DNA of 64,000 nt from an uncultured Clostridia bacterium (GTDB lineage: Bacteria > Acidobacteriota > Aminicenantia > JBFLYD01 > JBBIMS01), in the NCBI GenBank assembly GCA_964649495.1, contig CAZYPR010000003.1, forward strand, positions 17,879-81,878, given 5' to 3'. The position numbers and the translations under genes are program-made. Positions 15,982 to 61,807 of the stretch are shown in pieces; the first letter of the stretch is position 1, and the number at the start of each line of letters is the position of its first letter. The notes beneath the pieces are model-generated. The model did not search any database and was not told the origin of the DNA. It saw only the letters and a list, made by a program, of their open reading frames with translations.

Positions 15982-16856
15982 AAAACTTTGTTTTACCTGA
16001 AGAAGAGTATATGAGTTCAGGGCATCTTGCATGCCCAGGTTGCGGTGGAGCTCTTGCCATGAGATTTGCTCTTAAAGTTCTTGGAAGGAAGACAGTAATT
16101 TCTCTTCCCGCATGCTGCTGGTCTGTTATAGATGGTCCTTTTCCCTATTCCTCTTTAAGAATTCCTCTCTTCCACTGTGCCTTTGAAACCGCCGCATCCA
16201 CTGCTTCTGGAATAAGAGCTGCTCTTGATATTAAAGGGGTGGAAGATGTAAATGTTGTTGCATGGGCTGGAGATGGAGGAACTTTTGACATAGGGCTTCA
16301 GGCTCTTTCGGGAGCTGCTGAAAGGAATGAGAATATAATTTACATTTGTTATGACAATGAAGCTTATATGAATACTGGAATTCAGAGATCATCAGCAACT
16401 CCAAAGGGTGCATGGACAACAACAACTCCTGTTGAACATCCCAAGAGTGAGCCAAAAAAGAATATGGTTGAGATAATGGCAGCTCACAGAATCCCTTACA
16501 CAGCAACCCTTTCTATAGCATATCCTGATGATTTTGTTAGAAAGCTTGAAAAGGCAAAGAATATAAAAGGGACAAGATTCCTCCACATATTCTCTCCATG
16601 CCCTCCGGGATGGAAAATGGCACCAGAGCTGACAATTGAAATTGCAAGAATTGCGGTAAGGACAGGACTTTTCCCTCTTTATGAAGTTGAAGGTGGAATC
16701 AAATACACAATAAATGTTGAACCTGACTGGATTCCAATAATTGAATATTTTAGACTCCAGGGAAGATTTTCCCATTTAACAGAAGATGACCTGAAGGAAA
16801 TTGAAAATAATGTTAAAAGGGAATGGGAAATACTGAAAGGGAAATTAAGAAGTTAA
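15978..16856 (+). CDS. porB: 2-oxoacid:ferredoxin oxidoreductase beta subunit (TPP-binding)
   Basis: It contains GHLACPGCGGALAMRFALKVLG and the TPP motif GDGGTFDIGLQALSGAAERNENIIYICYDNEAYMNTG. The likely start is the ATG at 15978, overlapping the porA stop as ATGA. The ORF track begins at 15960. Confidence 0.85.
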   Translation: MKNFVLPEEEYMSSGHLACPGCGGALAMRFALKVLGRKTVISLPACCWSVIDGPFPYSSLRIPLFHCAFETAASTASGIRAALDIKGVEDVNVVAWAGDGGTFDIGLQALSGAAERNENIIYICYDNEAYMNTGIQRSSATPKGAWTTTTPVEHPKSEPKKNMVEIMAAHRIPYTATLSIAYPDDFVRKLEKAKNIKGTRFLHIFSPCPPGWKMAPELTIEIARIAVRTGLFPLYEVEGGIKYTINVEPDWIPIIEYFRLQGRFSHLTEDDLKEIENNVKREWEILKGKLRS

Positions 16857-17508: not shown

Positions 17509-17895
17509 GTGAAAAAAAGCATAAAAAACAAATTTAAAAAAATAAGTATATCAGTTGTTTATCTATTTGGTTCTCACGCAACCGGGTTGGAACATGGCAA
17601 AAGTGACATTGACATAGGAGTTGTTTTTGAAAAGGACCATAGTAGAGATCATCTCAAAATATACACTCAACTCTATGAGCTATTCTCAGAAATTTTTCCT
17701 GATAAGGAAATAGACATAGTTTTTCTCGAGGAAGCACCTCTTTCACTTCAGTTTGAAGCTATAAAATATGGGAAAGTTTTATATGAAAAAAATGTCAAAA
17801 TAAGACTTGATTATGAAGAGAAAACAATGCTGAAATATGCTGATTTTTTGCCCTTAGAAGAGGAAATGAACAGGGTAATTATCGAAAGAATATGA
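17509..17895 (+). CDS. Minimal nucleotidyltransferase (MNT/MntA-like antitoxin of a type VII HepT-MNT toxin-antitoxin system)
   Basis: It contains LFGSHATGLEHGKSDIDIGVVF, the GSx9-13DxD nucleotidyltransferase motif. It has a GTG start and is translationally coupled to the downstream HepT (4-nt ATGA overlap). Confidence 0.7.
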   Translation: MKKSIKNKFKKISISVVYLFGSHATGLEHGKSDIDIGVVFEKDHSRDHLKIYTQLYELFSEIFPDKEIDIVFLEEAPLSLQFEAIKYGKVLYEKNVKIRLDYEEKTMLKYADFLPLEEEMNRVIIERI

Positions 17896-18350
17896 AAAGT
17901 TTGCCAGTAAATAAAAATACTATAATTAAGAGACTTGATGAGATCCAGCGTTGTGTGGAAAAGCTGAAAAAATTTGAAAAGATGTCCTTTGATGAGTTTA
18001 ATAGTGGAGAAAATTTTGCGGTATCTGAACATTATCTGAGAAGAGCCCTCGAAGCAGTCTTCGAAATTGGTGCTCATATTTTAGCAAGACTTCCTGGAGG
18101 GATAACATCCAGCTATAAAGAAATCGCAAAAAAACTGGGCGAATATAAAATTATTCCATCTCAATTTGCAAGGGATAGCCTTATTAAAATGGCTGGTTAT
18201 AGGAATAGGCTTGTTCATTTTTATTTTGAGGTATCAATAGAAGAGCTTTATGAGATAATAAGAAAAGATCTTAAAGATTTCGATGTATTTACTGAATTAA
18301 TAAAAAAATTTTTGCTTGAACCCGAGAAGTTTGGATTAAAAGTAGAGTAG
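17892..18350 (+). CDS. HepT-like toxin (DUF86, HEPN domain) of a type VII toxin-antitoxin pair
   Basis: It has the HEPN Rx4HxY motif RNRLVHFY near the C-terminus, is 152 aa, and follows MNT directly. Confidence 0.7.
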   Translation: MKSLPVNKNTIIKRLDEIQRCVEKLKKFEKMSFDEFNSGENFAVSEHYLRRALEAVFEIGAHILARLPGGITSSYKEIAKKLGEYKIIPSQFARDSLIKMAGYRNRLVHFYFEVSIEELYEIIRKDLKDFDVFTELIKKFLLEPEKFGLKVE

Positions 18351-25706: not shown

Positions 25707-26147
25707 TTATCTATTTGTCAATTCCTCTCTCAAGTAATTTTTTACCCTTTCCAAAAAACTTTTATACAAAGGTTCTGTTTCCTGAACGAATCTCTTTATA
25801 GAAGCCCATCTTATATCAAGATATTCGTGAGCAATAATATTTCTAAGAGACACCCATCGAGATATTTTCTCCATCTCTTCTTTATCGAATCCCTTTACAA
25901 GAGATAAAAATGAAATTATTTCTCTATAGGTTTCTGGAAGCTTTATATCTTCAGCGGTAAGTATTAGTTTAGATATATCAATGGAAGAATTCACTATATT
26001 TTCTATCCATCTTTCAACATCTCTTCTTTTACTTCTATTAATGTTGTATTCCTCCCAGCTGAGATCTCTAAAAAAAGAATAATCTTCTATCTCCTTTTCA
26101 ATAAAGTTTACATGTTTGATAATTCTTTCTCTCAGTTCTTCTTTCAT
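25707..26147 (-). CDS. HepT-like HEPN toxin (DUF86), second type VII toxin-antitoxin pair
   Basis: It has the Rx4HxY motif RNIIAHEY. It is 146 aa and overlaps the upstream MNT gene by 4 nt. Confidence 0.65.
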   Translation of the reverse strand: MKEELRERIIKHVNFIEKEIEDYSFFRDLSWEEYNINRSKRRDVERWIENIVNSSIDISKLILTAEDIKLPETYREIISFLSLVKGFDKEEMEKISRWVSLRNIIAHEYLDIRWASIKRFVQETEPLYKSFLERVKNYLREELTNR

Positions 26148-26560
26148 TTCTTTCCTCTTTCAAGAAAATTTTTAAAGAGCATTTCTCTGAAATCTATTGC
26201 TTCCGAGGTGATTACTTCCATAAATTTAATGTAAAGCCCCCTGTCATTTATCGCAAGTGGTGTACCTCTGATTGCACTCGCAGAAATACTCGCAGATGCT
26301 CTATTCATAACAATAAGTTCTACCTCCTTTTTTAATATTTTCTCAATATCAGACCATATTTTATCCTCAGCTTCGTAAAATATATCCTTTTCATACTCTA
26401 TCGGATGTCTTTCTTCAGGATAAAAGTATACTGCAATATCAACATCTGATAGATTATGGGTAGTCCCTTTAGCTTGTGAGCCAAACAAAAAGGCAAAGGC
26501 AATGTCCTTACGATTTCTAAAATACTCTCTCAACAATTCTAAATTTTTCTCTTCTATCAT
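26144..26560 (-). CDS. Minimal nucleotidyltransferase (MNT antitoxin)
   Basis: It contains FLFGSQAKGTTHNLSDVDIAVYF, the GSx10DxD motif, and is 138 aa. Confidence 0.7.
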   Translation of the reverse strand: MIEEKNLELLREYFRNRKDIAFAFLFGSQAKGTTHNLSDVDIAVYFYPEERHPIEYEKDIFYEAEDKIWSDIEKILKKEVELIVMNRASASISASAIRGTPLAINDRGLYIKFMEVITSEAIDFREMLFKNFLERGKK

Positions 26561-43577: not shown

Positions 43578-44659
43578 TGAAAAAACTAAAGGATATTGAT
43601 TTTATTATTATTTTCACAGTAATAATAATTACTATTATCGGGATTCTTCTCATTTACAGCTCTTCTCAAGGGAAAGAAGCTCTCTGGAAGAAACAGCTTA
43701 TATGGGCGATTTCTTCAACAGGAGTCTTGTTTTCTGTGATATTTATAAACATAAAATCTCTGATATTTTATTCACCAATTTTTTATTTTCTATCAATTCT
43801 CCCTCTCTTCTATTTATTACTATTCGGAAAGAGAATAGCAGGGGCAAAAAGCTGGATAGACTTCGGTTATTTCGCTGTTCAGCCTTCTGAATTTGTAAAA
43901 ATAACAACAGCTCTCTTTCTCGCAAAGATAATATCAAGTTTTGAAGGAGACTCTTTAAAGTTCAAGAATGTTTCAAAAATATCCTTTGTTATTCTTTTCC
44001 CTTTTTCCCTCATATTTCTTCAACCCGACTACGGAACTGCATTCACTTTCATCTCTCTACTTGCATTTTCCATTTTTATCGGTGGTATACGAACCTCAAC
44101 TCTTATCATTCTCATAATTTTAATCTTTATAGGTGGGCTTTTTAGCTGGGAATATATTCTTAAGGATTATCATAAAGCAAGAATAATTTCTATCTTTTTC
44201 CCTGAGTTTGACCCAGAAGGTAGCAGTTATCAACTGATTCAATCGAAAATAGCCATTGGCTCAGGAGGTTTATCAGGAAAAGGTTTTCTAAAAGGGGACC
44301 AAACAAAGGCGGGATTTCTTCCAACTCCATCCACAGACTTTATCCTCTCCTCAGCAGGCGAAGAGTTTGGATTTATTGGCATTTTTGTAATTCTTTCCCT
44401 TTATATAATTTTATTTTTAAGAATTTTTAAAATAATGAAAAAAATAGAGGATAGGGGAGTTTTAGTTTTTGTTTTTCTCATTTTTTCCATAATTTTTTTC
44501 CAGTTTTTGCTCAATGTTTCCATGGTTCTGGGCTTTTTCCCTGTTATAGGAATCCCACTACCCTTTCTTAGCTATGGTGGCTCCTCACTACTTTCCCTTT
44601 ATCTAAGTATAGGTCTTATTTTAAATGGAAAAATAAGGGGTAAGATAGAGGAAAAATGA
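43577..44659 (+). CDS. rodA: Peptidoglycan glycosyltransferase RodA (SEDS family)
   Basis: It is a 10-TM SEDS protein with ...QPSEFVKITTALFLAK... and the C-terminal GIPLPFLSYGGSSLL motif. Confidence 0.85.
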   Translation: MKKLKDIDFIIIFTVIIITIIGILLIYSSSQGKEALWKKQLIWAISSTGVLFSVIFINIKSLIFYSPIFYFLSILPLFYLLLFGKRIAGAKSWIDFGYFAVQPSEFVKITTALFLAKIISSFEGDSLKFKNVSKISFVILFPFSLIFLQPDYGTAFTFISLLAFSIFIGGIRTSTLIILIILIFIGGLFSWEYILKDYHKARIISIFFPEFDPEGSSYQLIQSKIAIGSGGLSGKGFLKGDQTKAGFLPTPSTDFILSSAGEEFGFIGIFVILSLYIILFLRIFKIMKKIEDRGVLVFVFLIFSIIFFQFLLNVSMVLGFFPVIGIPLPFLSYGGSSLLSLYLSIGLILNGKIRGKIEEK

Positions 44660-44820
44660 AAGTTCTTTTTTTATCAGAAAATTTTTTGACCCTTTTATTA
44701 TTTTTTGTTATAAGTAAACCTTAAAATTAGAAAATGTATGGAGGAAAATCCATAGTGAGAAGAAATAAAACACATCCTTTCCTTTTTACTTTTAAATTTT
44801 AACTTTTATTAGGAGGGTTT

Positions 44821-45861
44821 ATGATAGGAATTTGTGGCTATGGTTCGTATCTTCCGAGATTGAGGATTAAATCTGAAACCATTGCTAAGCAATGGGGTAT
44901 GGATCCTGAATCTATTAAAAAAGGTTTGCTTCTCTACGAAAAGACTGTTCCAAATCATGACGAGGACACAATAACAATCTCTATTGAAGCAGCAAAGAAT
45001 GCTTTGAAGAGAGCGGGAATTTCTCCATCGGAAATTGGTGCAGTTTATGTAGGTTCAGAATCTCACCCTTATGTTGTAAAACCAACAGGAACTGTTGTTG
45101 CAGAAGCTCTCGGTATAACCCCTGATGTCCATATAGCGGATTTTGAATTTGCCTGTAAAGCTGGAACAGAAGCAATGTTTGTGGCATACTCTCAGGTTAA
45201 AGCTGGTGTTGTCAAATATGCCCTTGCTATTGGAGCTGACACATCTCAGGGAGCACCTGGAGATCCCCTTGAATATTCAGCCTCAGCGGGTGGAAGCGCT
45301 TTTATTTTTGGATCTGAAAGAATTGTTGCAGAAGTTATCGAAACTTATTCCTTCACAACAGATACTCCCGATTTCTGGAGAAGAGAGTATGAGTTCTATC
45401 CAAGACATGGAGGAAGATTCACCGGAGAGCAGGCGTATTTCAGGCACATAATATCTGCAGGAAAAGAAATAATGAAAAGAGCAGGACTAACTGCAAGGGA
45501 TATTGACTATGCGGTCTTCCATATGCCAAACGGAAAATTCCCTCAACAAGTAGCAAAAGCATTGGGTTTTGATCTAAAACAAATTGAACCAGGATGGATA
45601 GTTCCATGGATGGGTAACACCTATTCAGGCTCATCTCCAACAGGTCTTTCAGCAACTCTTGATATTGCAAAACCAGGGGATAAGATTATTATTGTATCTT
45701 TTGGTTCTGGAGCTGGTTCAGATGCTTTCATCTTCAAAGTTACGGAGAGAATAGAAGAGGTAAGGAATCTTGCTCCAAAAGTAAAGGATATGCTTGATGG
45801 AAAGAAGATATATGTGGATTATGGAAGTTATGCAAAAATAAGAGGAAAAATAATTGTTTAG
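44821..45861 (+). CDS. Hydroxymethylglutaryl-CoA synthase, archaeal/PksG-type
   Basis: It starts MIGICGYGSYLPRLRIKSETIAKQWGMDPESIKKGL, collinear with archaeal HMGCS. It has the active-site Cys context ADFEFACKAGTEAM and is 346 aa. Confidence 0.8.
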   Translation: MIGICGYGSYLPRLRIKSETIAKQWGMDPESIKKGLLLYEKTVPNHDEDTITISIEAAKNALKRAGISPSEIGAVYVGSESHPYVVKPTGTVVAEALGITPDVHIADFEFACKAGTEAMFVAYSQVKAGVVKYALAIGADTSQGAPGDPLEYSASAGGSAFIFGSERIVAEVIETYSFTTDTPDFWRREYEFYPRHGGRFTGEQAYFRHIISAGKEIMKRAGLTARDIDYAVFHMPNGKFPQQVAKALGFDLKQIEPGWIVPWMGNTYSGSSPTGLSATLDIAKPGDKIIIVSFGSGAGSDAFIFKVTERIEEVRNLAPKVKDMLDGKKIYVDYGSYAKIRGKIIV

Positions 45862-45870
45862 GAGGTAAAA

Positions 45871-47019
45871 ATGAGAGATGTTGCAATAATAGGGGCGGGA
45901 ATAACTAAATTTGGTGAGCACTGGAAAAAATCAATAAGGGACATTTTTGTTGAATCCGCTCTAATGGCAATTAAGGACGCTGGAGTGGATCACATTGATT
46001 CCATGTATGTCGGATGTATGTCAGGAGGCCTATTCGTTGCTCAGGAACATCTCGGAGCTTATCTTGCTGACTATCTTGGTCAAAGCTCAATTCCAGCTGT
46101 AAGGATTGAGTCTGCATGTGCATCAGGAGGCACTGCTTTGAGAATGGGTTTCATTGAAGTTGCATCAGGTTTATCAGATATAGTTCTTGTGGGAGGAGTA
46201 GAAAAGATGACAGATACGGATGATGTGACATTTGCACTTGCAACTGCAGCTGAACAGGAATATGAAGTATTCCATGGAATCACATTCCCTGGTTTATATG
46301 CTCTTATAGCCAACGCATACATGAAAAGATATGGGCTAACAAGGGAGCAACTTGCAATGGTGGCAGTAAAGAATCACAAACACGGTTCATTAAACCCCAA
46401 TGCCCAATTTCAATCAGAAATAACCATTGAAGCGGTTCTGAGCTCCACTCTTGTTGCTGATCCATTAAGATTAATGGATTGCTCTCCTGTCTCTGATGGT
46501 TCCGCATGTGTGATTCTTTGTCCTCTTGAATTGGCAAAAAAATTCACCGACACCCCTGTCAAAATAATAGGCTCAGGAATGGCAACTGATACTATTGCTT
46601 TACATTCAAGGAAGGATATAACAAGTCTTAAAGCTGTCTCCCTTTCTGCAGAAAAAGCTTACAAGATGGCGGGGATCAAACCAGAGGATGTGAATGTTGC
46701 AGAGGTTCATGATTGTTTCACAATAGCTGAAATTATAATAACTGAGGAACTGGGTTTCGCGGAGAGAGGGAAGGGAGGAGAACTTGTAGAGAAAGGTGAG
46801 ACATTCATTGGAGGTAGGATACCTGTGAATACCAGTGGTGGATTAAAGGCAAAGGGTCATCCAGTGGGTGCTACTGGAGTTGCACAAGCAGTGGAAATCT
46901 TTTACCAGCTCCAGGGAAGAGCAGAAAAAAGGCAGGTTAAGAATGCAAGAATAGGTTTAACCCAGAATATGGGAGGCTCTGGAGCCTCCTCAGTTGTTCA
47001 TATAATGGAGGTGGTATAA
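45871..47019 (+). CDS. Acetyl-CoA C-acetyltransferase (archaeal-type thiolase/SCP-x-like)
   Basis: It has [18 protein letters not shown], the Cys nucleophile context [13 protein letters not shown], and C-terminal GHPVGATG with an active-site Cys/His region. It is 382 aa. Confidence 0.8.
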
Positions 47020-47411
47020 TGTCAGTCCCAAAATACTGGAGAGAAATCCCTCAAAGGTATAGATTGGAGGCGGGGAAGTGCAAAAATTGTGGCTATATTG
47101 CCTTCCCTCCAAGACAGATCTGTCCTGAATGTAAAAAGAATGATTTTGAGAATATAAGACTTTCAGATACTGGTAAAATAATCTCCTACACAATAATAAG
47201 AGTTCCTCCCAAAAATTTCTCCTTCCAATCTCCTTATCCAGTTGCAATTATAGAGCTTGATGGTGGAGGGAGAATCACTGCTCAGATAACTGATGCAAGC
47301 CCTGAAGAAATTGAAATTGGTGCAAAAGTTAGGATTGTCTTGAGGAAAATTCAAGAAGAAGGGAAAGATGGAATCATATGCTATGGGTATAAAGCTACCC
47401 TTGAGAAATAG
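47019..47411 (+). CDS. DUF35 OB-fold/zinc-ribbon scaffold protein of the thiolase-HMGCS complex
   Basis: It has the [20 protein letters not shown] rubredoxin-like ribbon followed by an OB fold. It is 130 aa and translationally coupled to the thiolase (ATAATG overlap). Confidence 0.8.
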
Positions 47412-47413
47412 GA

Positions 47414-49021
47414 ATGTTTAGAATAGAAAGCAAGATAAATACATCCTCTTCTGAGTTCAAAGAGAACTTTGAGCACATGAAGAGGAGTGTGGAGGAGCTT
47501 AAAGAAAGACTTGAAGAGGTCAAGAAAGGGGGACCATCTGAAGCAGTGAAAAAACATAAAGAGAGGGGTAAGCTCACAGTAAGGGAAAGGCTTGCGCTGC
47601 TATTTGATCCAGGAACCCCATTCCTTGAACTTTCACCCCTTGCTGCCTATGGAATGTATAACAATGAAGCTCCCTGCGCTGGAATTGTGACTGGGATAGG
47701 TGTTGTCCACGGAAGAGAGGTTCTTGTTGTTGCTAATGATGCAACAGTTAAGGGAGGGACATATTTCCCTGAAACAATAAAGAAGCATGTCAGAGCTCAA
47801 GAAATAGCCATGGAGAATCGTCTCCCTTGCATATATCTTGTTGACTCGGGAGGAATCTTTCTTCCCCTTCAATCAGGAACATTCCCCGACAAGGAACATT
47901 TTGGAAGAATATTTTACAATCAAGCAAGAATGTCGGCAATGGGAATACCACAGATTTCAGTTGTGATGGGTTCATGCACTGCGGGAGGAGCATATGTTCC
48001 CGCAATGAGTGATGAGACGGTAATTGTGAGGCGTCAGGGAACAATATTCATTGGTGGACCTCCTCTTGTAAAGGCGGCCACAGGTGAGGAGGTGACTGCA
48101 GAAGAGTTGGGAGGGGCTGATGTGCATTGTAGAATTTCGGGTGTCTCGGATCATTATGCCCTAAATGATGAGCATGCCATAGAGATTACAAGGAACATCG
48201 TTGCAAATCTTCCAAAGAACAAGAAGTTTGAGCTTGATGTGGAAGATCCAAAAGAGCCTTATTACGATCCACAGGAAATTTATGGGATAGTTCCTAAAGA
48301 TCTGAGAAAACCCTTTGACATGAAGGAGATAATTGCAAGAATTGTAGATGGTAGCGAATTCCATGAGTTCAAAGAACTCTATGGTCCAACTCTTGTATGC
48401 GGTTTTGCCAGGATAATGGGTTATCCTGTGGGGATTGTTGCCAACAACGGGGTCCTTTTCTCAGAAAGTTCCCTTAAAGGTGCTCACTTTGTATCCATGT
48501 GCGCTGTCAGAAAAATTCCTCTTATATTCCTCCAAAATATTACTGGATTTATTGTTGGGAAACAGTATGAACATGGTGGAATCGCAAAGGATGGGGCAAA
48601 AATGGTTCATGCTGTTGCCAACGCAGATGTTCCCAAATTCACTGTAATAATCGGAGGCTCTTATGGAGCGGGTAATTATGCGATGGCGGGAAGAGCTTAC
48701 GATCCAAGGCTTCTCTGGATGTGGCCCACAGCAAGAATATGTGTAATGGGAGGGGAGCAGGCTGCGAACACCCTTCTTACTGTGAAACTTGAAGCCCTTG
48801 CAAGGGAAGGAAAAACCATGACAGAGGAGGAACAGGAGAAATTCAAAGAGCCAATCCTTAAAAAGTATGAAGAGGAATCTTCAGCCTATTATTCAACTGC
48901 ACGACTCTGGGACGATGGAATTTTAGATCCCCTTGATACAAGGGAAGCTCTCGCCTTGGGAATTGCTATGAGTTTAAACGCTCCAATCCCCGATCACAGA
49001 TTTGGTGTTTTCAGGATGTAG
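47414..49021 (+). CDS. Acyl-CoA carboxyltransferase beta subunit, methylcrotonyl-CoA carboxylase beta (MccB/LiuB)-like
   Basis: The N-terminal [28 protein letters not shown] and tandem carboxyltransferase N/C domains are collinear with MCCase beta. It is 535 aa. Confidence 0.8.
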
Positions 49022-49027
49022 AATTAA

Positions 49028-49813
49028 ATGAGCTACTCAACAATACTATTTTTAAAAGAAAAATTTATAGGGAAAATAATTCTCAATCGACCTGAGATCC
49101 ACAATGCCTTTAACGATTTAATGATTTCAGAATTGAACTTTGCTCTTGACCAAATTGAAAGGGATTCAGAAATAAGAGTAGTTGTTATAACAGGAGCGGG
49201 TGAGTCCTTTTGTGCAGGAGCAGATCTAAACTGGATGAAAAGAGTGAAAGATTGGAGTTATGAGAGAAATTATGAGGATGCTTTGATGGTTGCTGAACTT
49301 ATGGAGAGGATATACACATTTCCAAAACCTTTAATAACAAGAGTTAATGGAACAACAATTGGTGGAGGGACAGGGATTGTTGCAGCATCAGATATTTCAA
49401 TTGCATCAGAAAATGCTATTTTTGGCCTTGCTGAAGTTAAAATAGGACTCGTTCCCTCAGTAATTTCTCCATATCTCATAAAGAGATGCGGTGAAAGAGT
49501 TTGTAGAGAAATTTTTTTAACAGGGGAAAGGATCTCTGCAAGAAAAGCTCTTGAATTTGGGCTTGTCAACTATGTGGTTCCGAAAGAAGAACTGGACAAA
49601 AAAGTGGAGGAAATCGTGAAGATGCTTCTAAGTAGTGGTCCCAATGCAATGAAGATGTGCAAGGAGCTTATTAAGAGAGTTTCGGAAACTCCAATTTCTG
49701 AAGTTAAATCTTACACTGCTGATATAATTGCTAAGATCAGGATAAGTGAAGAAGGGCAAGAAGGAATCTCTTCATTCCTTGAAAAAAGGAAACCCAAGTG
49801 GGTGAAGGAATAA
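49028..49813 (+). CDS. Enoyl-CoA hydratase/isomerase (crotonase), methylglutaconyl-CoA hydratase-like
   Basis: It has the crotonase oxyanion-hole region VVVITGAGESFCAGADLNWM and catalytic Glu positions (GGGTGIVAASDISIASENAIFGLAEV). It is 261 aa. Confidence 0.8.
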   Translation: MSYSTILFLKEKFIGKIILNRPEIHNAFNDLMISELNFALDQIERDSEIRVVVITGAGESFCAGADLNWMKRVKDWSYERNYEDALMVAELMERIYTFPKPLITRVNGTTIGGGTGIVAASDISIASENAIFGLAEVKIGLVPSVISPYLIKRCGERVCREIFLTGERISARKALEFGLVNYVVPKEELDKKVEEIVKMLLSSGPNAMKMCKELIKRVSETPISEVKSYTADIIAKIRISEEGQEGISSFLEKRKPKWVKE

Positions 49814-49816
49814 GCT

Positions 49817-50761
49817 TTAGAAGTCCTGTTCCTCTCCGCAATAGGGGCATTTTTTAACAACATTAGATATCAATCTTTTACAGTTCCAGCACTTTTTTTC
49901 TCTTTTTATTTCTCTCATCTTTATCCTTTCTTTTATATCTCTGATAGAATCTGAATGGACATCCTTCCCAAGAAATCTTTCTATCTCTTCAATAATTTCT
50001 GAAGCACTCTGGTATCTTTCTTGAGGATTTGCCTTTAATGCTTTCATACATATGTTTGAAATTTCCCTTGGAACAGAAGGATTAGCCTTGTGGAGTGGAG
50101 TTATCTTTCCTTCCCTTGCAAGCTTTTCAATAACAAAGGGATTTGCATCAAGGATTGGTGGTGCTCCTGTCAGCATTTCGTATAGAATACATCCCAAAGA
50201 ATAAATGTCTGAGACAAAGGAGGATTTTCCCGCAAACTGTTCTGGTGCCATATAAGGGGGTGAACCAATCCTTGTTGTTGCATAAGGAACCCCTTCTATC
50301 CATGTAGATGTTCCGAAATCACCTATTTTTGCAATACCATCTTTAGTTATTAAAATATTTGAAGGACGAAGATCTCTGTGAATAATTTTATGTTCATGGG
50401 CATGCTTAACACCAAGACATATCTGTCTGAAATAATTTAAAGCGGTAGAAAGAGAAAGTTTACCTTCCCTTTCTATTATTCTATGAAGAGACTCGCCATC
50501 AACATACTCCATAACAATAAAAAAGTAAGGGTCTATTTTCTCTGCAGTGATAACCTGAACAATATTTGGATGGGTGAGGGCTGCTTGAACCTGTGGTTCC
50601 TTTAAAAGGTTCATCAAATCTGTAGATTGTCTATGAGGAACTTTTAAAGCAACTTTTTTCTTTAACCAGAGATCCTGGGCAAGATAAACAGTTCCAAATC
50701 CACCTGTTCCGAGGACCTCAAGGATTACATATTTTCCTAATCTTTGTCCCTTTAAAAACAA
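49817..50761 (-). CDS. Hanks-type Ser/Thr protein kinase with a C-terminal zinc ribbon
   Basis: It has GTGGFGTVYLA...ALK (VAIK-like), HRDLRPSNILI, DFGTS and SPPYMAPE motifs. The tail CWNCKRLISNVVKKCPYCGEEQDF is a CxxC...CxxC ribbon. Confidence 0.8.
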   Translation of the reverse strand: MFLKGQRLGKYVILEVLGTGGFGTVYLAQDLWLKKKVALKVPHRQSTDLMNLLKEPQVQAALTHPNIVQVITAEKIDPYFFIVMEYVDGESLHRIIEREGKLSLSTALNYFRQICLGVKHAHEHKIIHRDLRPSNILITKDGIAKIGDFGTSTWIEGVPYATTRIGSPPYMAPEQFAGKSSFVSDIYSLGCILYEMLTGAPPILDANPFVIEKLAREGKITPLHKANPSVPREISNICMKALKANPQERYQSASEIIEEIERFLGKDVHSDSIRDIKERIKMREIKREKKCWNCKRLISNVVKKCPYCGEEQDF

Positions 50762-50762
50762 T

Positions 50763-51485
50763 CTAATTCCTCCAAAAAATATTAAAGAGGGTGAGAGCAG
50801 AGATTACAGCGGTTTCGCTTCTGAGGATATACTTCCCAAGGGAAACTGATTTGAAGCCATTATTCAGTATAACAATTTCTTCTTCCTTCTCCCATCCTCC
50901 CTCCGGTCCAAAGAGTAATACAGCGGATTTTGGTTTTTTAGCTAAAATTTCTTTTATAATTATATCTCCATTTTCGCTAAAGAGTAATTTTTCTCCTTCA
51001 AAAGAAATTCTTAAAAATTTTTCAAGCTCTAACGGAGGTTCTATTTTCGGAAGGTATAATCTTTTTGATTGTTTGAGTGCGTTTATTGCAACGGATCTCC
51101 AGTGCCTTAGCTTTGGTTCAATCCCTTCTTTTCTTATTATTTTTGACCTCTTTGAATGAATTAGGAATATTTGGTCCGTTCCAAGCTCAGTTCCTTTCTG
51201 GATAATAAAATCCATGGTTTCATTTTTTAAAATGGCTTGTGCAAGAATAACTGGGGGATTCTCCCTCTCTTCCCTTTTCCTTTCCAGTATTTTAACCTTT
51301 GTGCTTTTCCTTCCTATTGAAATCACCTCCCCAGTATATAAATTCCCCTCTCCATCGGTAAGGGAAATTTTCTCACCAATTCTTCCTCTCAAAACTTTAG
51401 AAAAATGTATGTGCTCTTCCTCTGAAAGGAAACAGACATCATTTTCTATTTTTTCAGGATAGATAAAGAATCTATTTGCAGTCAA
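50763..51485 (-). CDS. rsmE: 16S rRNA (uracil1498-N3)-methyltransferase
   Basis: It has a PUA-like N-terminus and the SPOUT C-terminus (LLFGPEGGWEKEE...LGKYILRSETAVISALTL). It is 240 aa and directly downstream of dnaJ. Confidence 0.7.
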   Translation of the reverse strand: MTANRFFIYPEKIENDVCFLSEEEHIHFSKVLRGRIGEKISLTDGEGNLYTGEVISIGRKSTKVKILERKREERENPPVILAQAILKNETMDFIIQKGTELGTDQIFLIHSKRSKIIRKEGIEPKLRHWRSVAINALKQSKRLYLPKIEPPLELEKFLRISFEGEKLLFSENGDIIIKEILAKKPKSAVLLFGPEGGWEKEEEIVILNNGFKSVSLGKYILRSETAVISALTLFNIFWRN

Positions 51486-56127: not shown

Positions 56128-56281
56128 TAAGAATGACTAATATAATTTTTTCTGGAGGACTAATAAATGAAATATTTTCGGAATTATTCTATTATATCTT
56201 TACACTTAAAAGCCCTCTTTAGAAGAAATCCTTTAAGAAAAATTCTATAAAAATTAAAAATCATTTTTGAGGTGGTGTATT

Positions 56282-56830
56282 ATGGATAAAACAAAATCTC
56301 AAAAAGGAACAAAAAAATTATCCAAAAAAAGGACTGATAAGGATTCTGTTCCTGAATTTGTGGATGAATGTATTAAAAGGCAGGGAGGTCTCCTCATTCC
56401 TGTGCTTCAGGAGATCCAGGCACATTACCGCTATCTTCCAGAACAGGCTCTTAGGGAGGTTTCAAAGAAACTTGGGATTCCTTTGAGGGATGTTTACGGA
56501 GTAGCAACATTCTATAGAGCATTTGCTCTTACTCCCAGGGGTGAGCACGAGGTTACAATCTGTCTTGGAACTGCTTGCCATGTCAGAGGCGGAGCCAATA
56601 TAGTTAATACCCTCTCAACAGACCTTGGAATCTCTCCCGGACAGACAACCCCTGATGGAAAATTCACCCTTGAAACAGTTAACTGTCTTGGTTGCTGTGC
56701 AATCGGACCAATTGTAGTTGTTGACGGCGAATATCATGGGGAGATGAACTCCCAGAAAGCAAGAAAGTTGATTGAGAAATTAAAAAAGGAGGAGAAAAAT
56801 GCCAAAGCTAAAGTCTCCAAAAGAGCTTGA
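56282..56830 (+). CDS. NuoE/HoxE/HydC-like [2Fe-2S] thioredoxin-fold subunit of an NADH-dependent flavin oxidoreductase module
   Basis: It has the Cys ligands ...ICLGTACHVRGG...VNCLGCCAIGPIVVVDGEYHG. The likely start is the ATG at 56282 with a gaggtggtg RBS. Confidence 0.8.
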   Translation: MDKTKSQKGTKKLSKKRTDKDSVPEFVDECIKRQGGLLIPVLQEIQAHYRYLPEQALREVSKKLGIPLRDVYGVATFYRAFALTPRGEHEVTICLGTACHVRGGANIVNTLSTDLGISPGQTTPDGKFTLETVNCLGCCAIGPIVVVDGEYHGEMNSQKARKLIEKLKKEEKNAKAKVSKRA

Positions 56831-58676
56831 AAATTTAAGGAAGAAAATTCACGAGAAGAAGGATAGCACAAAAAAGATAATTTCAATTTCATCTGGGACA
56901 TGCGGAAGAGCAAGTGGCTCCCTTAAGATTGTTGATGCTTTTAAATCAGCTGTAAAAGGTCACGAGGAAAAGATTCAGCTCAAGGAGACAGGTTGCCATG
57001 GATTCTGCAGTGCAGAACCAAATGTTATAATCTTCCCTGAAGAGCTCTTTTACAGGAATCTTAAGCCTGAAGATGCTGAAAAAATTGTTTCCTCCATTCT
57101 AAAGGGGGAGATACTATATGAACTTACATATCAGGATAACGGGACAAGATTTCCCTATTTAAAGGAGATCCCTTTTTACAAAGACCAGAAAAGAGTTCTC
57201 CTCAACGACAATCCCCTTGTGGATCCAACAAGTATTGAAGATTACATTTCCCTTGGAGGTTATTCCTCTCTTTCCAAAGCTCTTTCTATGGAGCCAGATA
57301 AAATTATAGAAGAGATCAAAAAGTCGGGTCTCAGAGGCAGAGGTGGAGCAGGATTCCCAACAGGAAGGAAATGGGAAATTGTAAGGGAACAGAATAGCGA
57401 TGTTAAGTTCATAATCTGTAACGCTGACGAAGGAGATCCTGGCGCTTACATGGACAGAAGCCTTCTTGAAGGTAATCCTCACCTTGTAATTGAGGGAATG
57501 ATAATTGGTGGATATGCCATTGGTGCCACCCAGGGATGGATTTATGTAAGGGATGAGTATCCATTGGCGGTTCAGAATGTGACAAAGGCATTAGAGGATG
57601 CAAGAAAGTTAGGGTTTCTTGGAAAGAATATTCTTGGTTCATCCTTTAGTTTCGATATAAAGATTGCAAGAGGTGCGGGAGCCTTTGTTTGTGGTGAAGA
57701 AACAGCTCTGATTGCATCCATTGAAGGAAAGAGAGGAATTCCTCGACAGCGTCCTCCTTATCCCGCTCATAAGGGACTTTTTGGAAAACCTACCAACATT
57801 AACAATGTTGAGACATGGGGAAATGTAACAAGGATAATTGATAAGGGAGCTGATTGGTACTCAAGTATTGGGACTCAAGGCTCAAAAGGAACAAAGATAT
57901 TCTCTCTTGTTGGAAAAGTCAAAAACACAGGTCTTGTGGAAGTTCCCATGGGTATGAGCATTAATGAACTTGTTTTTAAAGTTGGAGGAGGTGCTCAGAA
58001 TGGTAAGAAAATAAAGGCTGTTCAGATTGGTGGACCTTCGGGAGGATGTATACCCTCAGAGCTCTTCCATTTACCTATTGATTACGAATCTCTTACCTCT
58101 GCAGGAGCAATAATGGGTTCAGGCGGAATGATTGTAATGGATGAGGACACCTGTATGGTAGATGTTGCAAGATACTTCACAAACTTCCTCCAGGATGAAT
58201 CCTGCGGAAAGTGTGTCTCCTGCAGGGAGGGAACCCAGAGAATGTATGAGATTTTAAAAGAGATTACAGAAGGAAGAGGAACTGAAGAACATCTTACTCT
58301 TCTTGAAGAGCTTGGAACAATTGTTAAGGATGCTTCCATGTGCGGACTTGGGCAGACCGCTCCTAATCCAGTTCTTTCTACCCTTAGGTATTTCAGGCAT
58401 GAGTATGAAGCTCACATTAAAGAAAAAAGATGTCCCGCCTTAGTATGCAAGGAACTAGTTCATTATTATATCCTTCCTGACAAATGTGTTGGTTGTCTTC
58501 TCTGTCTAAAATCCTGCCCTTCAGGAGCTATCTCTGGCGAGTTGAAGAAGGTTCATGTAATTGATGATTATAAATGTATTAAATGTGGGATCTGTATGGA
58601 GGTGTGCCCTGAGAAAGTAAGGGCTGTGATTAAGTACTCAGGTGAAAGACCTGAAAAGGAGGAGAGAAATGGCTAA
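56799..58676 (+). CDS. NuoF/HydB-like NADH-binding flavoprotein subunit (FMN, N-terminal [2Fe-2S] thioredoxin-like domain, C-terminal 2x[4Fe-4S])
   Basis: It has GRGGAGFPTGRKWE (NADH/FMN site), the SLBB and 4Fe-4S region ...ESCGKCVSCREGT..., and the C-terminal ferredoxin CVGCLLCLKSCP...CIKCGICMEVCP. The N-terminal extension carries SSGTCGRASGS...GCHGFCS. This is the architecture of HydB/HndC-type subunits. Confidence 0.85.
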   Translation: MPKLKSPKELENLRKKIHEKKDSTKKIISISSGTCGRASGSLKIVDAFKSAVKGHEEKIQLKETGCHGFCSAEPNVIIFPEELFYRNLKPEDAEKIVSSILKGEILYELTYQDNGTRFPYLKEIPFYKDQKRVLLNDNPLVDPTSIEDYISLGGYSSLSKALSMEPDKIIEEIKKSGLRGRGGAGFPTGRKWEIVREQNSDVKFIICNADEGDPGAYMDRSLLEGNPHLVIEGMIIGGYAIGATQGWIYVRDEYPLAVQNVTKALEDARKLGFLGKNILGSSFSFDIKIARGAGAFVCGEETALIASIEGKRGIPRQRPPYPAHKGLFGKPTNINNVETWGNVTRIIDKGADWYSSIGTQGSKGTKIFSLVGKVKNTGLVEVPMGMSINELVFKVGGGAQNGKKIKAVQIGGPSGGCIPSELFHLPIDYESLTSAGAIMGSGGMIVMDEDTCMVDVARYFTNFLQDESCGKCVSCREGTQRMYEILKEITEGRGTEEHLTLLEELGTIVKDASMCGLGQTAPNPVLSTLRYFRHEYEAHIKEKRCPALVCKELVHYYILPDKCVGCLLCLKSCPSGAISGELKKVHVIDDYKCIKCGICMEVCPEKVRAVIKYSGERPEKEERNG

Positions 58677-59358
58677 GATAAGGATTGATGGTATTGAGTT
58701 TGATGCTCCTGAGAACTGGACAATCCTTGAAACAGCAAAATTTCTCGGGCTTGAAATACCGACCCTCTGCTATTATGAGGGTTTAACTCCATGGGGTGGA
58801 TGCAGAATCTGTCTTGTTGAGATTGGCAAAGATAATAATACAAAGCTTGTTACATCCTGCACATATCCTGTGGAAGAAGGATTAAATGTAAAAACTTCCA
58901 CTCCAAGGGTATTGAAGGCAAGAAAAATGATGTTAGAACTAATGATTGCCCAGTGCCCGACATCAAAGGTTCTTCAGGATATGGCAGCAAAGATAGGAGT
59001 GGATAAAGTTAGATTCAAGCCAAAATGGGAAACATGCATTTACTGTGGGCTATGTGTAAGAATGTGTGAAGAGCAGATGATGGCTTCAGCTATTGGATTT
59101 GTCAACAGAGGGAATAAACTCAAAATTACAACTCCCTTTGATATTTCCTCTGAAGATTGTAGAAGATGCGGAGGATGTATTTACATTTGCCCTGCCTGCA
59201 CTCTCAGATGCGAAGGTGGAAAGCCCCAATCTGTGATCTGCGCAAGATGCGAGAACTCTCTTCAACCAACCTGTGTTGAAGTATACGGCAATTTCACATG
59301 CTGGATGGGTTTAAAAGGAGAATGTGGAACTTGCGTCCCAATAGAAAAGACCAAATGA
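58669..59358 (+). CDS. NuoG/HydA N-terminal-like Fe-S protein (2Fe-2S plus multiple 4Fe-4S) that lacks any H-cluster or molybdopterin catalytic domain
   Basis: It has the 2Fe-2S ferredoxin start MAKIRIDGIEFDAPENWTILETAKFLGLEIPTLCYYEG...CRICLVEI, followed by CPTSKV, CIYCGLCVRMCEE, CRRCGGCIYICPAC and a Cys-rich tail. It is only 229 aa. The ATG at 58669 overlaps the previous stop. Confidence 0.7.
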   Translation: MAKIRIDGIEFDAPENWTILETAKFLGLEIPTLCYYEGLTPWGGCRICLVEIGKDNNTKLVTSCTYPVEEGLNVKTSTPRVLKARKMMLELMIAQCPTSKVLQDMAAKIGVDKVRFKPKWETCIYCGLCVRMCEEQMMASAIGFVNRGNKLKITTPFDISSEDCRRCGGCIYICPACTLRCEGGKPQSVICARCENSLQPTCVEVYGNFTCWMGLKGECGTCVPIEKTK

Positions 59359-59415
59359 AAGCAATTCAATTTTTGAGAATTCTTTTAAATTTTCCATGAA
59401 AGGAGGTTTTATAAA

Positions 59416-60993
59416 ATGAGCTTTACAAAAATAAACGCAACAGCGGCAACATTAACAAAGAACAGGACCGAGGGTTCTGTAGTCCCAATAAGTGGAATGT
59501 GTGTAACATGTGTGGATGGGTGTATAGGAATGTGTGAAATAGGAAAATCAGCCTACCGTGGAGCAGAGGCAATCTATCCTCAGCCCTTCGGTATTATTAC
59601 CTCTGCGGGAGAGAAAGATTATCCCATTGACCTTTCCCATTTTTCCATAATGGGCTCTGCTACAGGTGCGTATGGAATTGAGGCTGATTCAGACAAGGCA
59701 ATCTTCCCAAATGTAAATTTGGAGAGAAGGATTGGAAGAGACAAGGGGATTAAGTTGAGACTTCCAATTGTTCTTGGAGGACTTGGCTCCACAGCCATTG
59801 CAAAGAATAACTGGGAAGGAATAGCGGGTGGAGCAGCAATAACAGGGATAATATGCACAGTGGGTGAGAATATCTGCGGAATGGATCCCCAGTCGGAAAT
59901 TGTTAATGGTAAAGTTAAACGCTCCCCTGAAATGGAAAGAAGAATAAGGCTTTACAGGGAGTGGCAGCAGGACGGTTATGGAACAATTGCAGTTCAGGCT
60001 AATGTGGAGGATACAAGACTTGGTGTTCATGAGTATGTTATTGAAAAACTTGGTGTTGAGGCAGTTGAGCTAAAATGGGGACAAGGAGCAAAGGATATTG
60101 GTGGAGAGGTAAAGATTAAAGATCTGAAGATGGCACAAATGTTGAAGGATAGAGGATATGTTGTGCTTCCTGATCCCTATGACCCAGAGGTTATAAAATC
60201 CTTTGAGAGAAAGGTTTTCCACGAGTTTGAAAGACATTCAAGGGTTGGAATGGTTGATCTTGAATCTTTCTGCAAGAGAGTGGAGGAGCTCAGAAAGTTC
60301 GGAGCAAAATATGTATTTTTGAAGACAGGGGCTTACAGACCTCAGGATCTTGCAAGAGCTGTAAAATATGCTTCAGAAGCCCAAATTGATCTTTTAACAG
60401 TTGACGGAGCGGGAGGCGGAACTGGAATGAGCCCATGGAGAATGATGAATGAGTGGGGGGTTCCACCTATAGAGCTCTGGTCCCTTCTCTATCAGTATCT
60501 TGACAAACTTGCTAAAAAAGGAAAATATATACCAGATGTGGCTGTAGCCAGTGGAATAATTCTTGAAGACCAGATTTTTAAAGCCCTTGCAATTGGTGCT
60601 CCTTACTTCAAATTGGTTTGCATGGCAAGAGGTCCTGTTGCAGCTGCAATGGTTGGAAAGAATATAATTAGAATGATGGAGGAAGGTCAGACTCCTGTTT
60701 ATGTAACTCGATTTGGAGTTTCAAAGGAAGAGATTTTTGTTACCGCTCCTGAACTTAAGAGAAGATATGGTGATAGATTCGAGCAGATACCAGCTGGAGC
60801 AATGGGACTTTACACCTACATGAAAAGAATTGAACAGGGGCTTAAACAACTAATGGCAGGAAGCAGAAAATTCTCCCTTGATTATATAACAAGAGATGAT
60901 ATTGCAGCAATAACAAAGGAAGCAGCTGGGATTAGCGGAATTAAATATGTAATGGAACTGGACAAAGAAGAAGCAGAAAAGATTCTTGAATAG
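59416..60993 (+). CDS. FMN-dependent glutamate-synthase-domain-2-like oxidoreductase (GltB central-domain family) with an N-terminal Cys cluster
   Basis: It has LLTVDGAGGGTGMSPWRMMNEWGVP, the GltS FMN-domain DGxxGGTG signature, and an N-terminal CVTCVDGCIGMCEIGK (Cx2Cx3Cx3C). It is 525 aa with a strong aaaggagg RBS. Confidence 0.7.
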   Translation: MSFTKINATAATLTKNRTEGSVVPISGMCVTCVDGCIGMCEIGKSAYRGAEAIYPQPFGIITSAGEKDYPIDLSHFSIMGSATGAYGIEADSDKAIFPNVNLERRIGRDKGIKLRLPIVLGGLGSTAIAKNNWEGIAGGAAITGIICTVGENICGMDPQSEIVNGKVKRSPEMERRIRLYREWQQDGYGTIAVQANVEDTRLGVHEYVIEKLGVEAVELKWGQGAKDIGGEVKIKDLKMAQMLKDRGYVVLPDPYDPEVIKSFERKVFHEFERHSRVGMVDLESFCKRVEELRKFGAKYVFLKTGAYRPQDLARAVKYASEAQIDLLTVDGAGGGTGMSPWRMMNEWGVPPIELWSLLYQYLDKLAKKGKYIPDVAVASGIILEDQIFKALAIGAPYFKLVCMARGPVAAAMVGKNIIRMMEEGQTPVYVTRFGVSKEEIFVTAPELKRRYGDRFEQIPAGAMGLYTYMKRIEQGLKQLMAGSRKFSLDYITRDDIAAITKEAAGISGIKYVMELDKEEAEKILE

Positions 60994-61120: not shown

Positions 61121-61807
61121 TCATTGCTGAGAAAATGAGCTTTTTGCCTTTGCAATCAATTCCCTCAATTCCCTTGCAGATTCTTCTGGGTCAGGAGAGC
61201 TAACAATTGCAGAGACCACTGCAACGCCATCAGCACCACTTTTTATAACATCAATAACATTTTCCCTGTTTATTCCTCCAATTCCAATAACAGGAACTCT
61301 TACAGATTCTTTTATTCTCCTTATTCCATCAAGCCCAAGGGGTGATCCTGCATCAGGTTTGGTTGGAGTTGAAAAGACAGGACTCACAGCAATGTAATCC
61401 GCTCCCTTTTCAGATTTCTCAACTGCCTCAAGGACAGATCCTGCAGATGCTCCAATTATAAATTTCTTCCCCAATATTCTTCTTGCAATCTCCACAGGCA
61501 TGTCTTCATTTCCAAGATGAACTCCATCAGCATTAACAGCAAGTGCAACATCAACCCTGTCGTTAATTATAAGGGGTATATTCTTTCCCTCAATAATTTT
61601 CTTTACCTCTAATGCCTCTTCAATAAACTCTTTTGTCGATAAACTCTTCTCCCTCAACTGAATAATGGTAACCCCCCCTTCCACAGCCTTTTTTATCATT
61701 TGGAAAAATGGTAGATTTGAAAGCCTTCTATCTGTTACAAGATAAAGATCCCAAATTATTTTCCTTCTCATTCTAAAATTAAATCTACTTTTTCTCCAGA
61801 GATTCAA
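61121..61807 (-). CDS. thiE: Thiamine-phosphate synthase
   Basis: It has ...LYLVTDRRL..., the TMP-TENI fold, and VIGIGGINRENVIDVIKSGADGVAVVSAI at the C-terminus. The true start is likely at an internal Met, because the N-terminal extension overlaps the upstream TPR gene. Confidence 0.8.
   Translation of the reverse strand: MNLWRKSRFNFRMRRKIIWDLYLVTDRRLSNLPFFQMIKKAVEGGVTIIQLREKSLSTKEFIEEALEVKKIIEGKNIPLIINDRVDVALAVNADGVHLGNEDMPVEIARRILGKKFIIGASAGSVLEAVEKSEKGADYIAVSPVFSTPTKPDAGSPLGLDGIRRIKESVRVPVIGIGGINRENVIDVIKSGADGVAVVSAIVSSPDPEESARELRELIAKAKSSFSQQ

Follow-up and report, generated by a model that had tools for sequence, protein, structure and literature searches.

An archaeal-type thiolase/HMG-CoA synthase/DUF35 trio in one bacterial operon with 3-methylcrotonyl-CoA carboxylase and LiuC genes: a possible lyase-free variant of leucine catabolism

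The leucine/isovalerate (Liu) pathway, as encoded by liuABCDE of Pseudomonas and by other canonical clusters, proceeds through 3-methylcrotonyl-CoA and 3-methylglutaconyl-CoA to 3-hydroxy-3-methylglutaryl-CoA (HMG-CoA; CoA, coenzyme A). When HMG-CoA is removed by HMG-CoA lyase (LiuE), one C2 unit exits as acetoacetate, which needs re-activation. The same intermediates occur in the Aib pathway of myxobacteria, in whose operon mvaS, a gene for HMG-CoA synthase (HMGCS), stands beside genes for a decarboxylase and a reductase. The archaeal complex of acetoacetyl-CoA thiolase, HMGCS and a DUF35 protein ties the endergonic reaction of the thiolase to the exergonic one of HMGCS (PMC11522927). In this work, we describe a locus in which the genes for such an archaeal-type trio directly precede those for the beta subunit of 3-methylcrotonyl-CoA carboxylase (MccB; the enzyme is abbreviated MCC) and for a LiuC-type 3-methylglutaconyl-CoA hydratase. 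It lies at positions 44821–49813 of a 64,000-nucleotide (64 kb) stretch of contig CAZYPR010000003.1 (assembly GCA_964649495.1; GTDB phylum Acidobacteriota, Aminicenantia), referred to below as the window. The components are well known; what appears to be new is their union in one operon, which is mutually exclusive with the lyase in the loci seen and is found across many uncultured phyla. Full-text searches of the literature returned no description of a cluster of the trio with MCC and LiuC.

The operon and its products

Five open reading frames (ORFs) on the + strand fill positions 44821–49813 and are separated, in order, by 9, −1, 2 and 6 nt. They read as one operon: in a promoter and terminator scan of positions 44300–50900, no terminator-like site was found on the + strand within the block, and one such site was located 3′ of the LiuC gene. 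An earlier note on this DNA had named all five genes from the sequence alone, and these identities were confirmed by profile models, PDB matches and exact ORF coordinates. All five products act on HMG-CoA, and three directions of the route are conceivable.

The first gene (44821–45861, + strand) encodes an archaeal-type, short HMGCS of 346 aa. It exceeds the cut-offs of both archaeal equivalog models (TIGR00748, 536 bits against 353; NF003274, 532 bits against 244) and stays below that of the prokaryotic, MvaS-type model TIGR01835 (108 bits against 360). Its top PDB match is 6esq_I, the HMGCS of the Methanothermococcus thermolithotrophicus complex (461 bits), and in the alignment to this chain the motifs EFACKAGT, with the catalytic Cys, and FHxPNGKF, with the catalytic His, are retained. 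The second gene (45871–47019, + strand) encodes an SCP2-type acetoacetyl-CoA thiolase of 382 aa, which scores 571 bits with NF004720 (cut-off 420) and 565 bits with NF053570, slightly short of the cut-off of 600. Its top PDB match is 6esq_A (399 bits), and it retains the Cys of ACASG as well as HDCF, an instance of the HDxF motif whose catalytic role has been described (PMC12960953). The third gene (47019–47411, + strand), whose first nucleotide is also the last of the thiolase stop codon, encodes a DUF35 scaffold protein of 130 aa with a zinc ribbon (PF12172, zf-ChsH2) and an OB fold (PF01796, OB_ChsH2_C); its top PDB match is the DUF35 subunit of the archaeal complex, 6esq_E (122 bits). Judged by these matches, the trio is, at the sequence level, a full member of the archaeal thiolase/HMGCS/DUF35 complex.

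The fourth gene (47414–49021, + strand) encodes the MccB/LiuB carboxyltransferase, a protein of 535 aa that matches PF01039 (Carboxyl_trans) with 532 bits. The earlier note expected this protein to group with MccB or GcdA rather than with PccB or AccD, and the scores bear this out in favour of MccB. Characterised MCC beta subunits give 793 bits (9tps, Legionella pneumophila, identified via bioRxiv 10.64898/2025.12.22.694428), 764 bits (3u9r_B, Pseudomonas aeruginosa) and 763 bits (human MCCC2), compared with about 280 bits for PccB and 192 bits for GcdA. The protein is thus a genuine MccB and not a GcdA-like enzyme.

The fifth gene (49028–49813, + strand) encodes a crotonase-fold protein of 261 aa (ECH_1, 207 bits) of the LiuC/AtuE type. 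It remains under the cut-off of every NCBIfam equivalog, the best model being NF004227 (gamma-carboxygeranoyl-CoA hydratase; 259 bits against a cut-off of 426). It shares a blastp cluster with the enoyl-CoA hydratase (ECH) encoded beside MccB in 48 loci, canonical, lyase-bearing liu clusters among them, and the predicted function as methylglutaconyl-CoA hydratase is based on this synteny. The active site follows a single-Glu pattern, in which GGGTG replaces the first crotonase Glu and the second Glu is kept in AEV.

The note's remark that genes for biotin carboxylase (BC) and biotin carboxyl carrier protein (BCCP), HMG-CoA lyase and isovaleryl-CoA dehydrogenase are absent next to the operon holds for the whole window: tblastn searches of the 64 kb detected none of these, nor any other acyl-CoA dehydrogenase (ACAD) or electron-transfer flavoprotein (ETF).

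Relatives of the operon and the place of HMG-CoA lyase

Relatives were collected in two independent scans, one seeded with MccB (one genome per GTDB species) and one seeded with HMGCS (JGI metagenomes), and by contig look-ups. The roughly 170 loci gathered are the best-scoring subsets of the scan matches, and they were analysed by ORF clustering and tblastn with about 10 kb of flank visible on each side. Among them, 27 non-redundant loci join the trio to the MccB clade of the window, the Zixibacteria contributing thiolase and DUF35 only. Wherever MccB is at least 75% identical to that of the window, thiolase and DUF35 genes lie directly upstream, with the single exception of locus L090, and HMGCS is also present in all of these trio loci except in Zixibacteria. 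The sources include Aminicenantales (L091), another member of the Acidobacteriota (L008), a complete WOR-3 genome (L088), Stahlbacteria (L009), Glassbacteria (L007), Edwardsbacteria (L005), Ignavibacteria (L024) and Zixibacteria (L003). WOR-3 CP070686.1 and Aminicenantales GCA_052743675.1 are examples of complete or nearly complete genomes in which the cluster is present. In a neighbour-joining (NJ) tree, the trio-linked MccBs form one clade, and all lyase-linked MccBs fall outside it. The adjacency is not due to chance, since it recurs in 27 non-redundant loci of several phyla. The earlier note is supported in that trio, MccB and LiuC make up one functional unit around HMG-CoA, and this unit is conserved.

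The commonest form of the operon has seven genes, in the order HMGCS-thiolase-DUF35-MccB-LiuC-BC-BCCP. BC and BCCP genes directly follow LiuC in most relatives (L004, L005, L007, L008, L088, L091, L119 and others), and the ATP-grasp BC passes the accC equivalog cut-off. The five-gene form that lacks them is confined to the window and two near-identical contigs (L001, L092). Because the operon of most relatives continues with an ATP-grasp BC and a BCCP, the MCC of this system is an ordinary ATP-dependent one, and the lack of BC and BCCP beside the operon of the window is a recent change at this site rather than a trait of the system as a whole. The step made in the earlier note from a missing alpha subunit to a decarboxylase does not survive this comparison. 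In Aminicenantes AC-335-A11 (L090), MccB-LiuC-BC-BCCP stands with no adjoining trio. Seen across these forms, the module is mobile and subject to rearrangement.

Several loci depart from these forms. The arrangement of Zixibacteria SM23_81 (L003/L002) is degenerate, with thiolase, an SBF-family transporter, DUF35, MccB, arylsulfotransferase genes, LiuC and acetate kinase, and BC further on. The ORF upstream of its thiolase was considered as an HMGCS and rejected, as it has no Pfam match and no HMGCS similarity. In L165, a carboxyltransferase only 46% identical to MccB is followed by the trio, an ECH and an ACAD. In L120/L121, an ACAD gene lies directly upstream of the trio in the same direction, and MccB is found about 7 kb away on the opposite strand.

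HMG-CoA lyase was found within 10 kb in none of the 27 trio-linked loci. Of the approximately 72 other, canonical MccB loci, at least 34 carry it within that distance, with the usual order MccB-LiuC-BC-BCCP-lyase and with the motif EVGPRDGLQNE in the lyase; an ACAD and CoA-transferase A/B genes are often present as well. The MccBs of such canonical clusters are 66–72% identical to that of the window and come from Acidobacteriota, Vicinamibacterales, Bdellovibrionales, Bacteroidales, Melainabacteria and Thermoplasmatales archaea. From this distribution, the trio stands, in the genome as in the logic of the pathway, at the place of the lyase, by which HMG-CoA is removed.

In several loci, the neighbours of the trio-MCC operon are catabolic. 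In WOR-3, L009 and L010, the upstream genes encode propionyl-CoA carboxylase (PCC), methylmalonyl-CoA mutase (MCM) and epimerase, a CoA-transferase, methionine gamma-lyase and alanine dehydrogenase, and the downstream genes a second ECH, a 3-hydroxyacyl-CoA dehydrogenase, a thiolase and a biotin ligase. ETF and an FeS oxidoreductase are encoded next to the operon in L004, butyrate kinase and phosphotransbutyrylase in L005, and acetate kinase right after LiuC in L003.

A second instance of a displaced lyase is found in Marinifilum, where MccB-LiuC-BC-BCCP precedes an AtuA-like gene and a lyase is missing. The only strong structural match of the AtuA model is a PDB entry titled citramalate lyase. 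In ten Ignavibacteriota-like loci (L089, L098, L099, L102, L104, L105, L116, L141, L173, L174), the trio itself precedes AtuA, in the order PCMT-MiaA-trio-AtuA-AtuA_Fd-PrfB. We initially counted this link as independent support and then downgraded it. Because Ignavibacterium sp. AP026678 (L172) holds the same PCMT-MiaA-AtuA-PrfB block without the trio, the Ignavibacteriota trio is an insertion in that block, and its link with AtuA may be lineage synteny only.

Two further groups of MccB loci are recorded here. In Bacteroidales metagenome-assembled genomes (MAGs; L016, L022, L039, L040, L069), MccB-LiuC is followed, about 1.7–2.7 kb after the MccB start, by a gene for a protein of about 724 aa that is not an ATP-grasp BC. 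This protein, made up of a 5S-transcarboxylase/PycB/OadA-like domain and, at the C-terminus, a biotinyl domain (PDB 5ks8_C, 155 bits; 1rqb, 139 bits), may act as an oxaloacetate:3-methylcrotonyl-CoA transcarboxylase that needs no ATP. The Bacteroidales loci retain two HMGL-like genes and an ACAD, and some also CoA-transferase A/B. In Thermoplasmatales/Proteinoplasmatales (L013, L014, L017, L028), MccB is about 70% identical to the bacterial proteins; the gene order is ECH-ECH-BC-BCCP-MccB, an ACAD gene lies close by, and a lyase is absent. As archaea hold the trio anyway, the question of the fate of HMG-CoA arises likewise for these loci.

The linkage to MCC is the commonest arrangement of the trio in the sample (27 of 44 informative loci). 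In the NJ tree of HMGCS, built with a single archaeal reference, the bacterial sequences form one clade apart from that reference; MCC-linked members lie on both main branches, and the AtuA-linked (Ignavibacteriota) and partnerless members are derived groups. The trio occurs without MccB in Thermosulfidibacter takaii, in Ignavibacteriota and in eight other loci. T. takaii is a chemolithoautotroph known for its reversible citrate synthase. On a 4.4 kb contig from a read assembly of its strain ABI70S6 (L087), the HMGCS is 77% identical to that of the window and sister to it in the tree, and the gene that comes after the trio is that of a flagellin, not MccB. Searches by motif and by tblastn with approximate queries detected no HMG-CoA reductase (HMGR), mevalonate kinase or GHMP gene in the 64 kb window or in the roughly 170 trio and MccB loci (about 2 Mb).

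Direction of the route

The interpretation that we favour, to which we attach somewhat less than an even chance, is a lyase-free variant of the leucine/isovalerate pathway in which the trio runs backwards. In the first step, MCC, composed of the MccB of the window with BC and BCCP, would carboxylate 3-methylcrotonyl-CoA at the expense of ATP; BC and BCCP would presumably be encoded elsewhere in this genome, as they are next door in relatives. LiuC would then hydrate 3-methylglutaconyl-CoA to HMG-CoA. Finally, the thiolase/HMGCS/DUF35 complex would work in reverse through its shared CoA site and convert HMG-CoA and 2 CoA to 3 acetyl-CoA and H2O. The trio would thus replace HMG-CoA lyase, all three C2 units would be kept as thioesters, and one thioester would be saved.

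The proposed benefit is energetic. With the lyase, the estimated net yield per isovaleryl-CoA is about 2 acetyl-CoA, from which the 1 ATP spent by MCC has to be deducted, and the oxidation of isovaleryl-CoA then gains nothing over the excretion of isovalerate. With the trio, the estimate rises to 3 acetyl-CoA and about +2 ATP. For an anaerobic fermenter that forms acetate, the gain would amount to about 2 ATP per isovaleryl-CoA instead of about 1. The reversal, which we consider possible rather than probable, would make this the first HMG-CoA synthase to run backwards physiologically, as part of an ‘HMG-CoA thiolytic cleavage system’ that would approximately double the substrate-level ATP obtained from isovaleryl-CoA.

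This interpretation is supported by the tight operon, the closeness of the trio to the archaeal complex, the genuine MccB, the 27 loci of several phyla with their single MccB clade, the mutual exclusion of trio and lyase, the displaced lyase of Marinifilum, the catabolic neighbours and the fact that no HMGR or mevalonate kinase was found in the window or the related loci. The energetics also count in its favour. By our rough estimates, the thiolase condensation takes about +26 kJ/mol and HMGCS about −35 to −45 kJ/mol, and the net reverse reaction of the trio would come to only about +10 to +19 kJ/mol, a value that a high CoA/acetyl-CoA ratio could reach. The reversal of citrate synthase, established in the reversed oxidative tricarboxylic acid (TCA) cycle, is far more demanding, at about +35 kJ/mol. 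The BC and BCCP genes after LiuC in most relatives fit the carboxylating direction. What we infer from these observations is which way the flux runs, that HMGCS works backwards and that this genome supplies BC and BCCP.

A number of points weigh against it. HMGCS is considered physiologically irreversible, and to our knowledge no reversed HMGCS has been reported. The window offers neither BC and BCCP nor a dehydrogenase or ETF, and where the trio stands without MccB, an anabolic forward role is more natural. The absence of lyase and HMGR covers loci with flanks of about 10 kb, so that either gene may lie elsewhere in the genomes. Finally, genomic context is circumstantial, and ACADs as well as kinases work both ways.

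The forward role leads to the main alternative, a rather unlikely one in our view, in which the two halves of the operon converge on HMG-CoA. The trio would run forwards, from 3 acetyl-CoA to HMG-CoA, MCC and LiuC would add leucine carbon, and an HMGR encoded elsewhere would direct the product to isoprenoids; without the lyase, no leucine carbon would be lost as acetoacetate. Routes from leucine to isoprenoids are known in haloarchaea and Leishmania, which counts for such a supply. By sequence, the trio belongs fully to the complex with which the mevalonate pathway of archaea begins, and loci with the trio only, that of the autotroph T. takaii included, make a biosynthetic role natural there. 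The ATP-dependent MCC suits this direction, and the absence of the lyase is equally compatible with it. A high isoprenoid demand may also be indicated by the orthologues of GGGPS and DGGGPS reported in all 12 phyla surveyed of the Fibrobacteres–Chlorobi–Bacteroidetes (FCB) group (PMC6431249). However, bacterial mevalonate genes are usually clustered, and neither HMGR nor mevalonate kinase turned up in the approximate searches of the window and the roughly 170 loci; full-text searches of the literature likewise returned no mevalonate pathway described for these phyla. Convergence on HMG-CoA leaves the catabolic superclusters and the acetate and butyrate kinase neighbours unexplained, and the need for isoprenoids is small as a sink for a leucine route that takes four genes and consumes ATP.

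The earlier note proposed that the whole route runs towards isovaleryl-CoA, which we regard as improbable. Acetyl-CoA would be converted to HMG-CoA, LiuC would act as a dehydratase to give 3-methylglutaconyl-CoA, and MccB, working backwards, would release CO2 and 3-methylcrotonyl-CoA on the way to isovaleryl-CoA, to be used in making iso-branched lipids or leucine; ATP synthesis, transcarboxylation or a Na+ pump would discharge the carboxybiotin. In this scheme, HMGCS would work in its favoured direction, and the lack of BC and BCCP in the 64 kb window speaks for it as well. An ATP-independent partner of MccB is conceivable, as in the Bacteroidales loci where the 5S/OadA-like biotinyl protein replaces BC, and an NMO/FabK-family oxidoreductase is encoded within the WOR-3 supercluster. 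The myxobacterial Aib operon offers a formal analogy.

Against this scheme, most relatives keep the ATP-grasp BC and BCCP, which would be superfluous for a decarboxylase and would imply an ATP-yielding reversal of MCC, for which we know of no precedent in vivo. The protein signatures of the Aib pathway are missing: no CoA-transferase domain was found in the five proteins, no CoA-transferase A/B homologue in the window, and no AibC-type dehydrogenase or reductase in the operon. As the HMGCS is not of the MvaS type either, the membership in this pathway suggested in the note was not supported. A Na+-pumping decarboxylase was rejected as well, together with the note's idea of energy conservation driven by decarboxylation: the carboxyltransferase is an MccB and not GcdA-like, and a membrane subunit is absent from the operon and not recurrent beside its relatives. 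As a fermentation, the scheme would be a poor electron sink by our own estimate. The replacement of the lyase and the catabolic neighbours (PCC, MCM, methionine gamma-lyase, ETF, acetate and butyrate kinase) instead favour a catabolic or HMG-CoA-supplying role.

That a mevalonate-type trio merely abuts what is left of a liu operon and exchanges no metabolites with it is very improbable: gene order does vary in the phylum, as the trio-free MccB-LiuC-BC-BCCP of AC-335-A11 and the lack of BC and BCCP in the window illustrate, but the adjacency is kept in 27 loci of several phyla, the MccBs linked to the trio fall into a single clade, the genes of the window are only −1 to 9 nt apart, and trio and lyase are strictly exclusive.

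Surroundings of the operon and comparison with described systems

The operon is flanked by housekeeping genes. Upstream are the genes for PBP2 and rodA; between rodA and the operon, an AT-rich intergenic leader of 161 nt (44660–44820, + strand), read in the sequence, is the presumed promoter region. Sigma-70-like matches in 44300–50900 are no more frequent than in shuffled sequence. No Rfam family, riboswitch or T-box was detected in the leader, and the only match in an Rfam search of the whole window is a tRNA. A convergent Ser/Thr kinase gene lies 3 nt beyond the last stop of the operon, and rsmE, dnaJ, grpE and hrcA follow downstream on the opposite strand. The G+C content at 46001–50000 is 0.40–0.42, compared with 0.34–0.39 typically, which is compatible with a highly conserved or an acquired module.

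Elsewhere in the window, positions 12639–16856 (+ strand) contain a 2-oxoacid:ferredoxin oxidoreductase cluster of the pyruvate/2-ketoisovalerate family, 28 kb from the operon. Its gamma subunit scores just above the PorC cut-off, its beta subunit passes that for 3-methyl-2-oxobutanoate dehydrogenase beta, and a GltD-like NAD(P)-binding FeS flavoprotein of 549 aa is encoded between gamma and alpha; the cluster could supply branched acyl-CoA. Positions 56267–60993 (+ strand) encode a NuoE-like 2Fe-2S protein, a 625-aa NuoF-like protein that carries additional 4Fe-4S domains, a Fer2_4 protein and a glutamate-synthase-domain protein of 525 aa, which together look like a soluble NADH-linked FeS flavoprotein module. 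Two toxin-antitoxin pairs of the MNT (Polbeta nucleotidyltransferase)/HepT type are located at 17509–18350 (+ strand) and 25707–26560 (− strand). A membrane protein of 446 aa (3548–4888, + strand), preceded by three sugar-nucleotide epimerase/dehydratase genes, matches DUF92/TIGR00297 in its C-terminal half only, its N-terminal approximately 215 aa being without a family match. The genes thiC and thiE lie at 7286–8599 (+ strand) and 61121–61807 (− strand), and no thiamine pyrophosphate (TPP) riboswitch reaches the Rfam gathering score in the window.

These findings bear first on annotation. An archaeal-type HMGCS in bacterial MAGs is easily taken as evidence of a mevalonate pathway; here, it is mostly found with MCC and LiuC, and never with HMGR in the stretches seen. 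If cleavage that conserves the thioesters does take place, it would make the oxidation of leucine worthwhile and could explain the spread of the operon through amino-acid-fermenting sediment phyla. For enzymology, the seven-gene form provides a defined set of seven proteins with which to ask whether channelling can drive an ‘irreversible’ synthase complex backwards. If the trio instead feeds mevalonate synthesis, the operon would represent an archaeal-type way into isoprenoid synthesis that is fed by leucine, in FCB and Acidobacteriota bacteria, for which archaeal lipid genes have been reported.

Among described systems, the complex of M. thermolithotrophicus (6ESQ/6ET9) is the closest to the trio: the three subunits are adjacent, match with 461, 399 and 122 bits, and keep the Cys/His and Cys/HDxF motifs. 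It differs in that our locus belongs to a bacterial host and shares its operon with MccB and LiuC, in that no mevalonate gene was found nearby, and in that the proposed direction may be the reverse. With liuABCDE and the canonical clusters, the locus shares an orthologous MccB (66–72% identity to canonical loci; 764 bits to P. aeruginosa) and a LiuC-type hydratase directly after it. Unlike them, no trio-linked locus has LiuE, the trio standing in its place, and in relatives the alpha subunit is divided between BC and BCCP. The window itself has no BC, BCCP or LiuA, whereas an ACAD is found beside the trio in L120/L121 and L165. The Aib pathway (MvaS, LiuC, AibA/B, AibC) is similar in placing HMGCS and a LiuC-type enzyme outside a mevalonate cluster, around the same intermediates; here, however, the HMGCS is of the short archaeal kind with thiolase and DUF35, and the carboxyltransferase MccB, which depends on biotin, stands in place of AibA/B and AibC. 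GcdABCD and other Na+-pumping biotin decarboxylases employ a carboxyltransferase of the same superfamily acting on a glutaconyl-type CoA ester, yet our protein scores 192 bits to GcdA compared with 764–793 bits to MCC beta subunits, and no membrane beta subunit is encoded in or near the operon.

The last comparison concerns the reversed oxidative TCA cycle, in which citrate synthase runs backwards in Thermosulfidibacter and Desulfurella. Its enzyme family and pathway are different; by analogy only, the trio would likewise run a hydrolysing Claisen-type synthase backwards and so save ATP or a thioester relative to a lyase.

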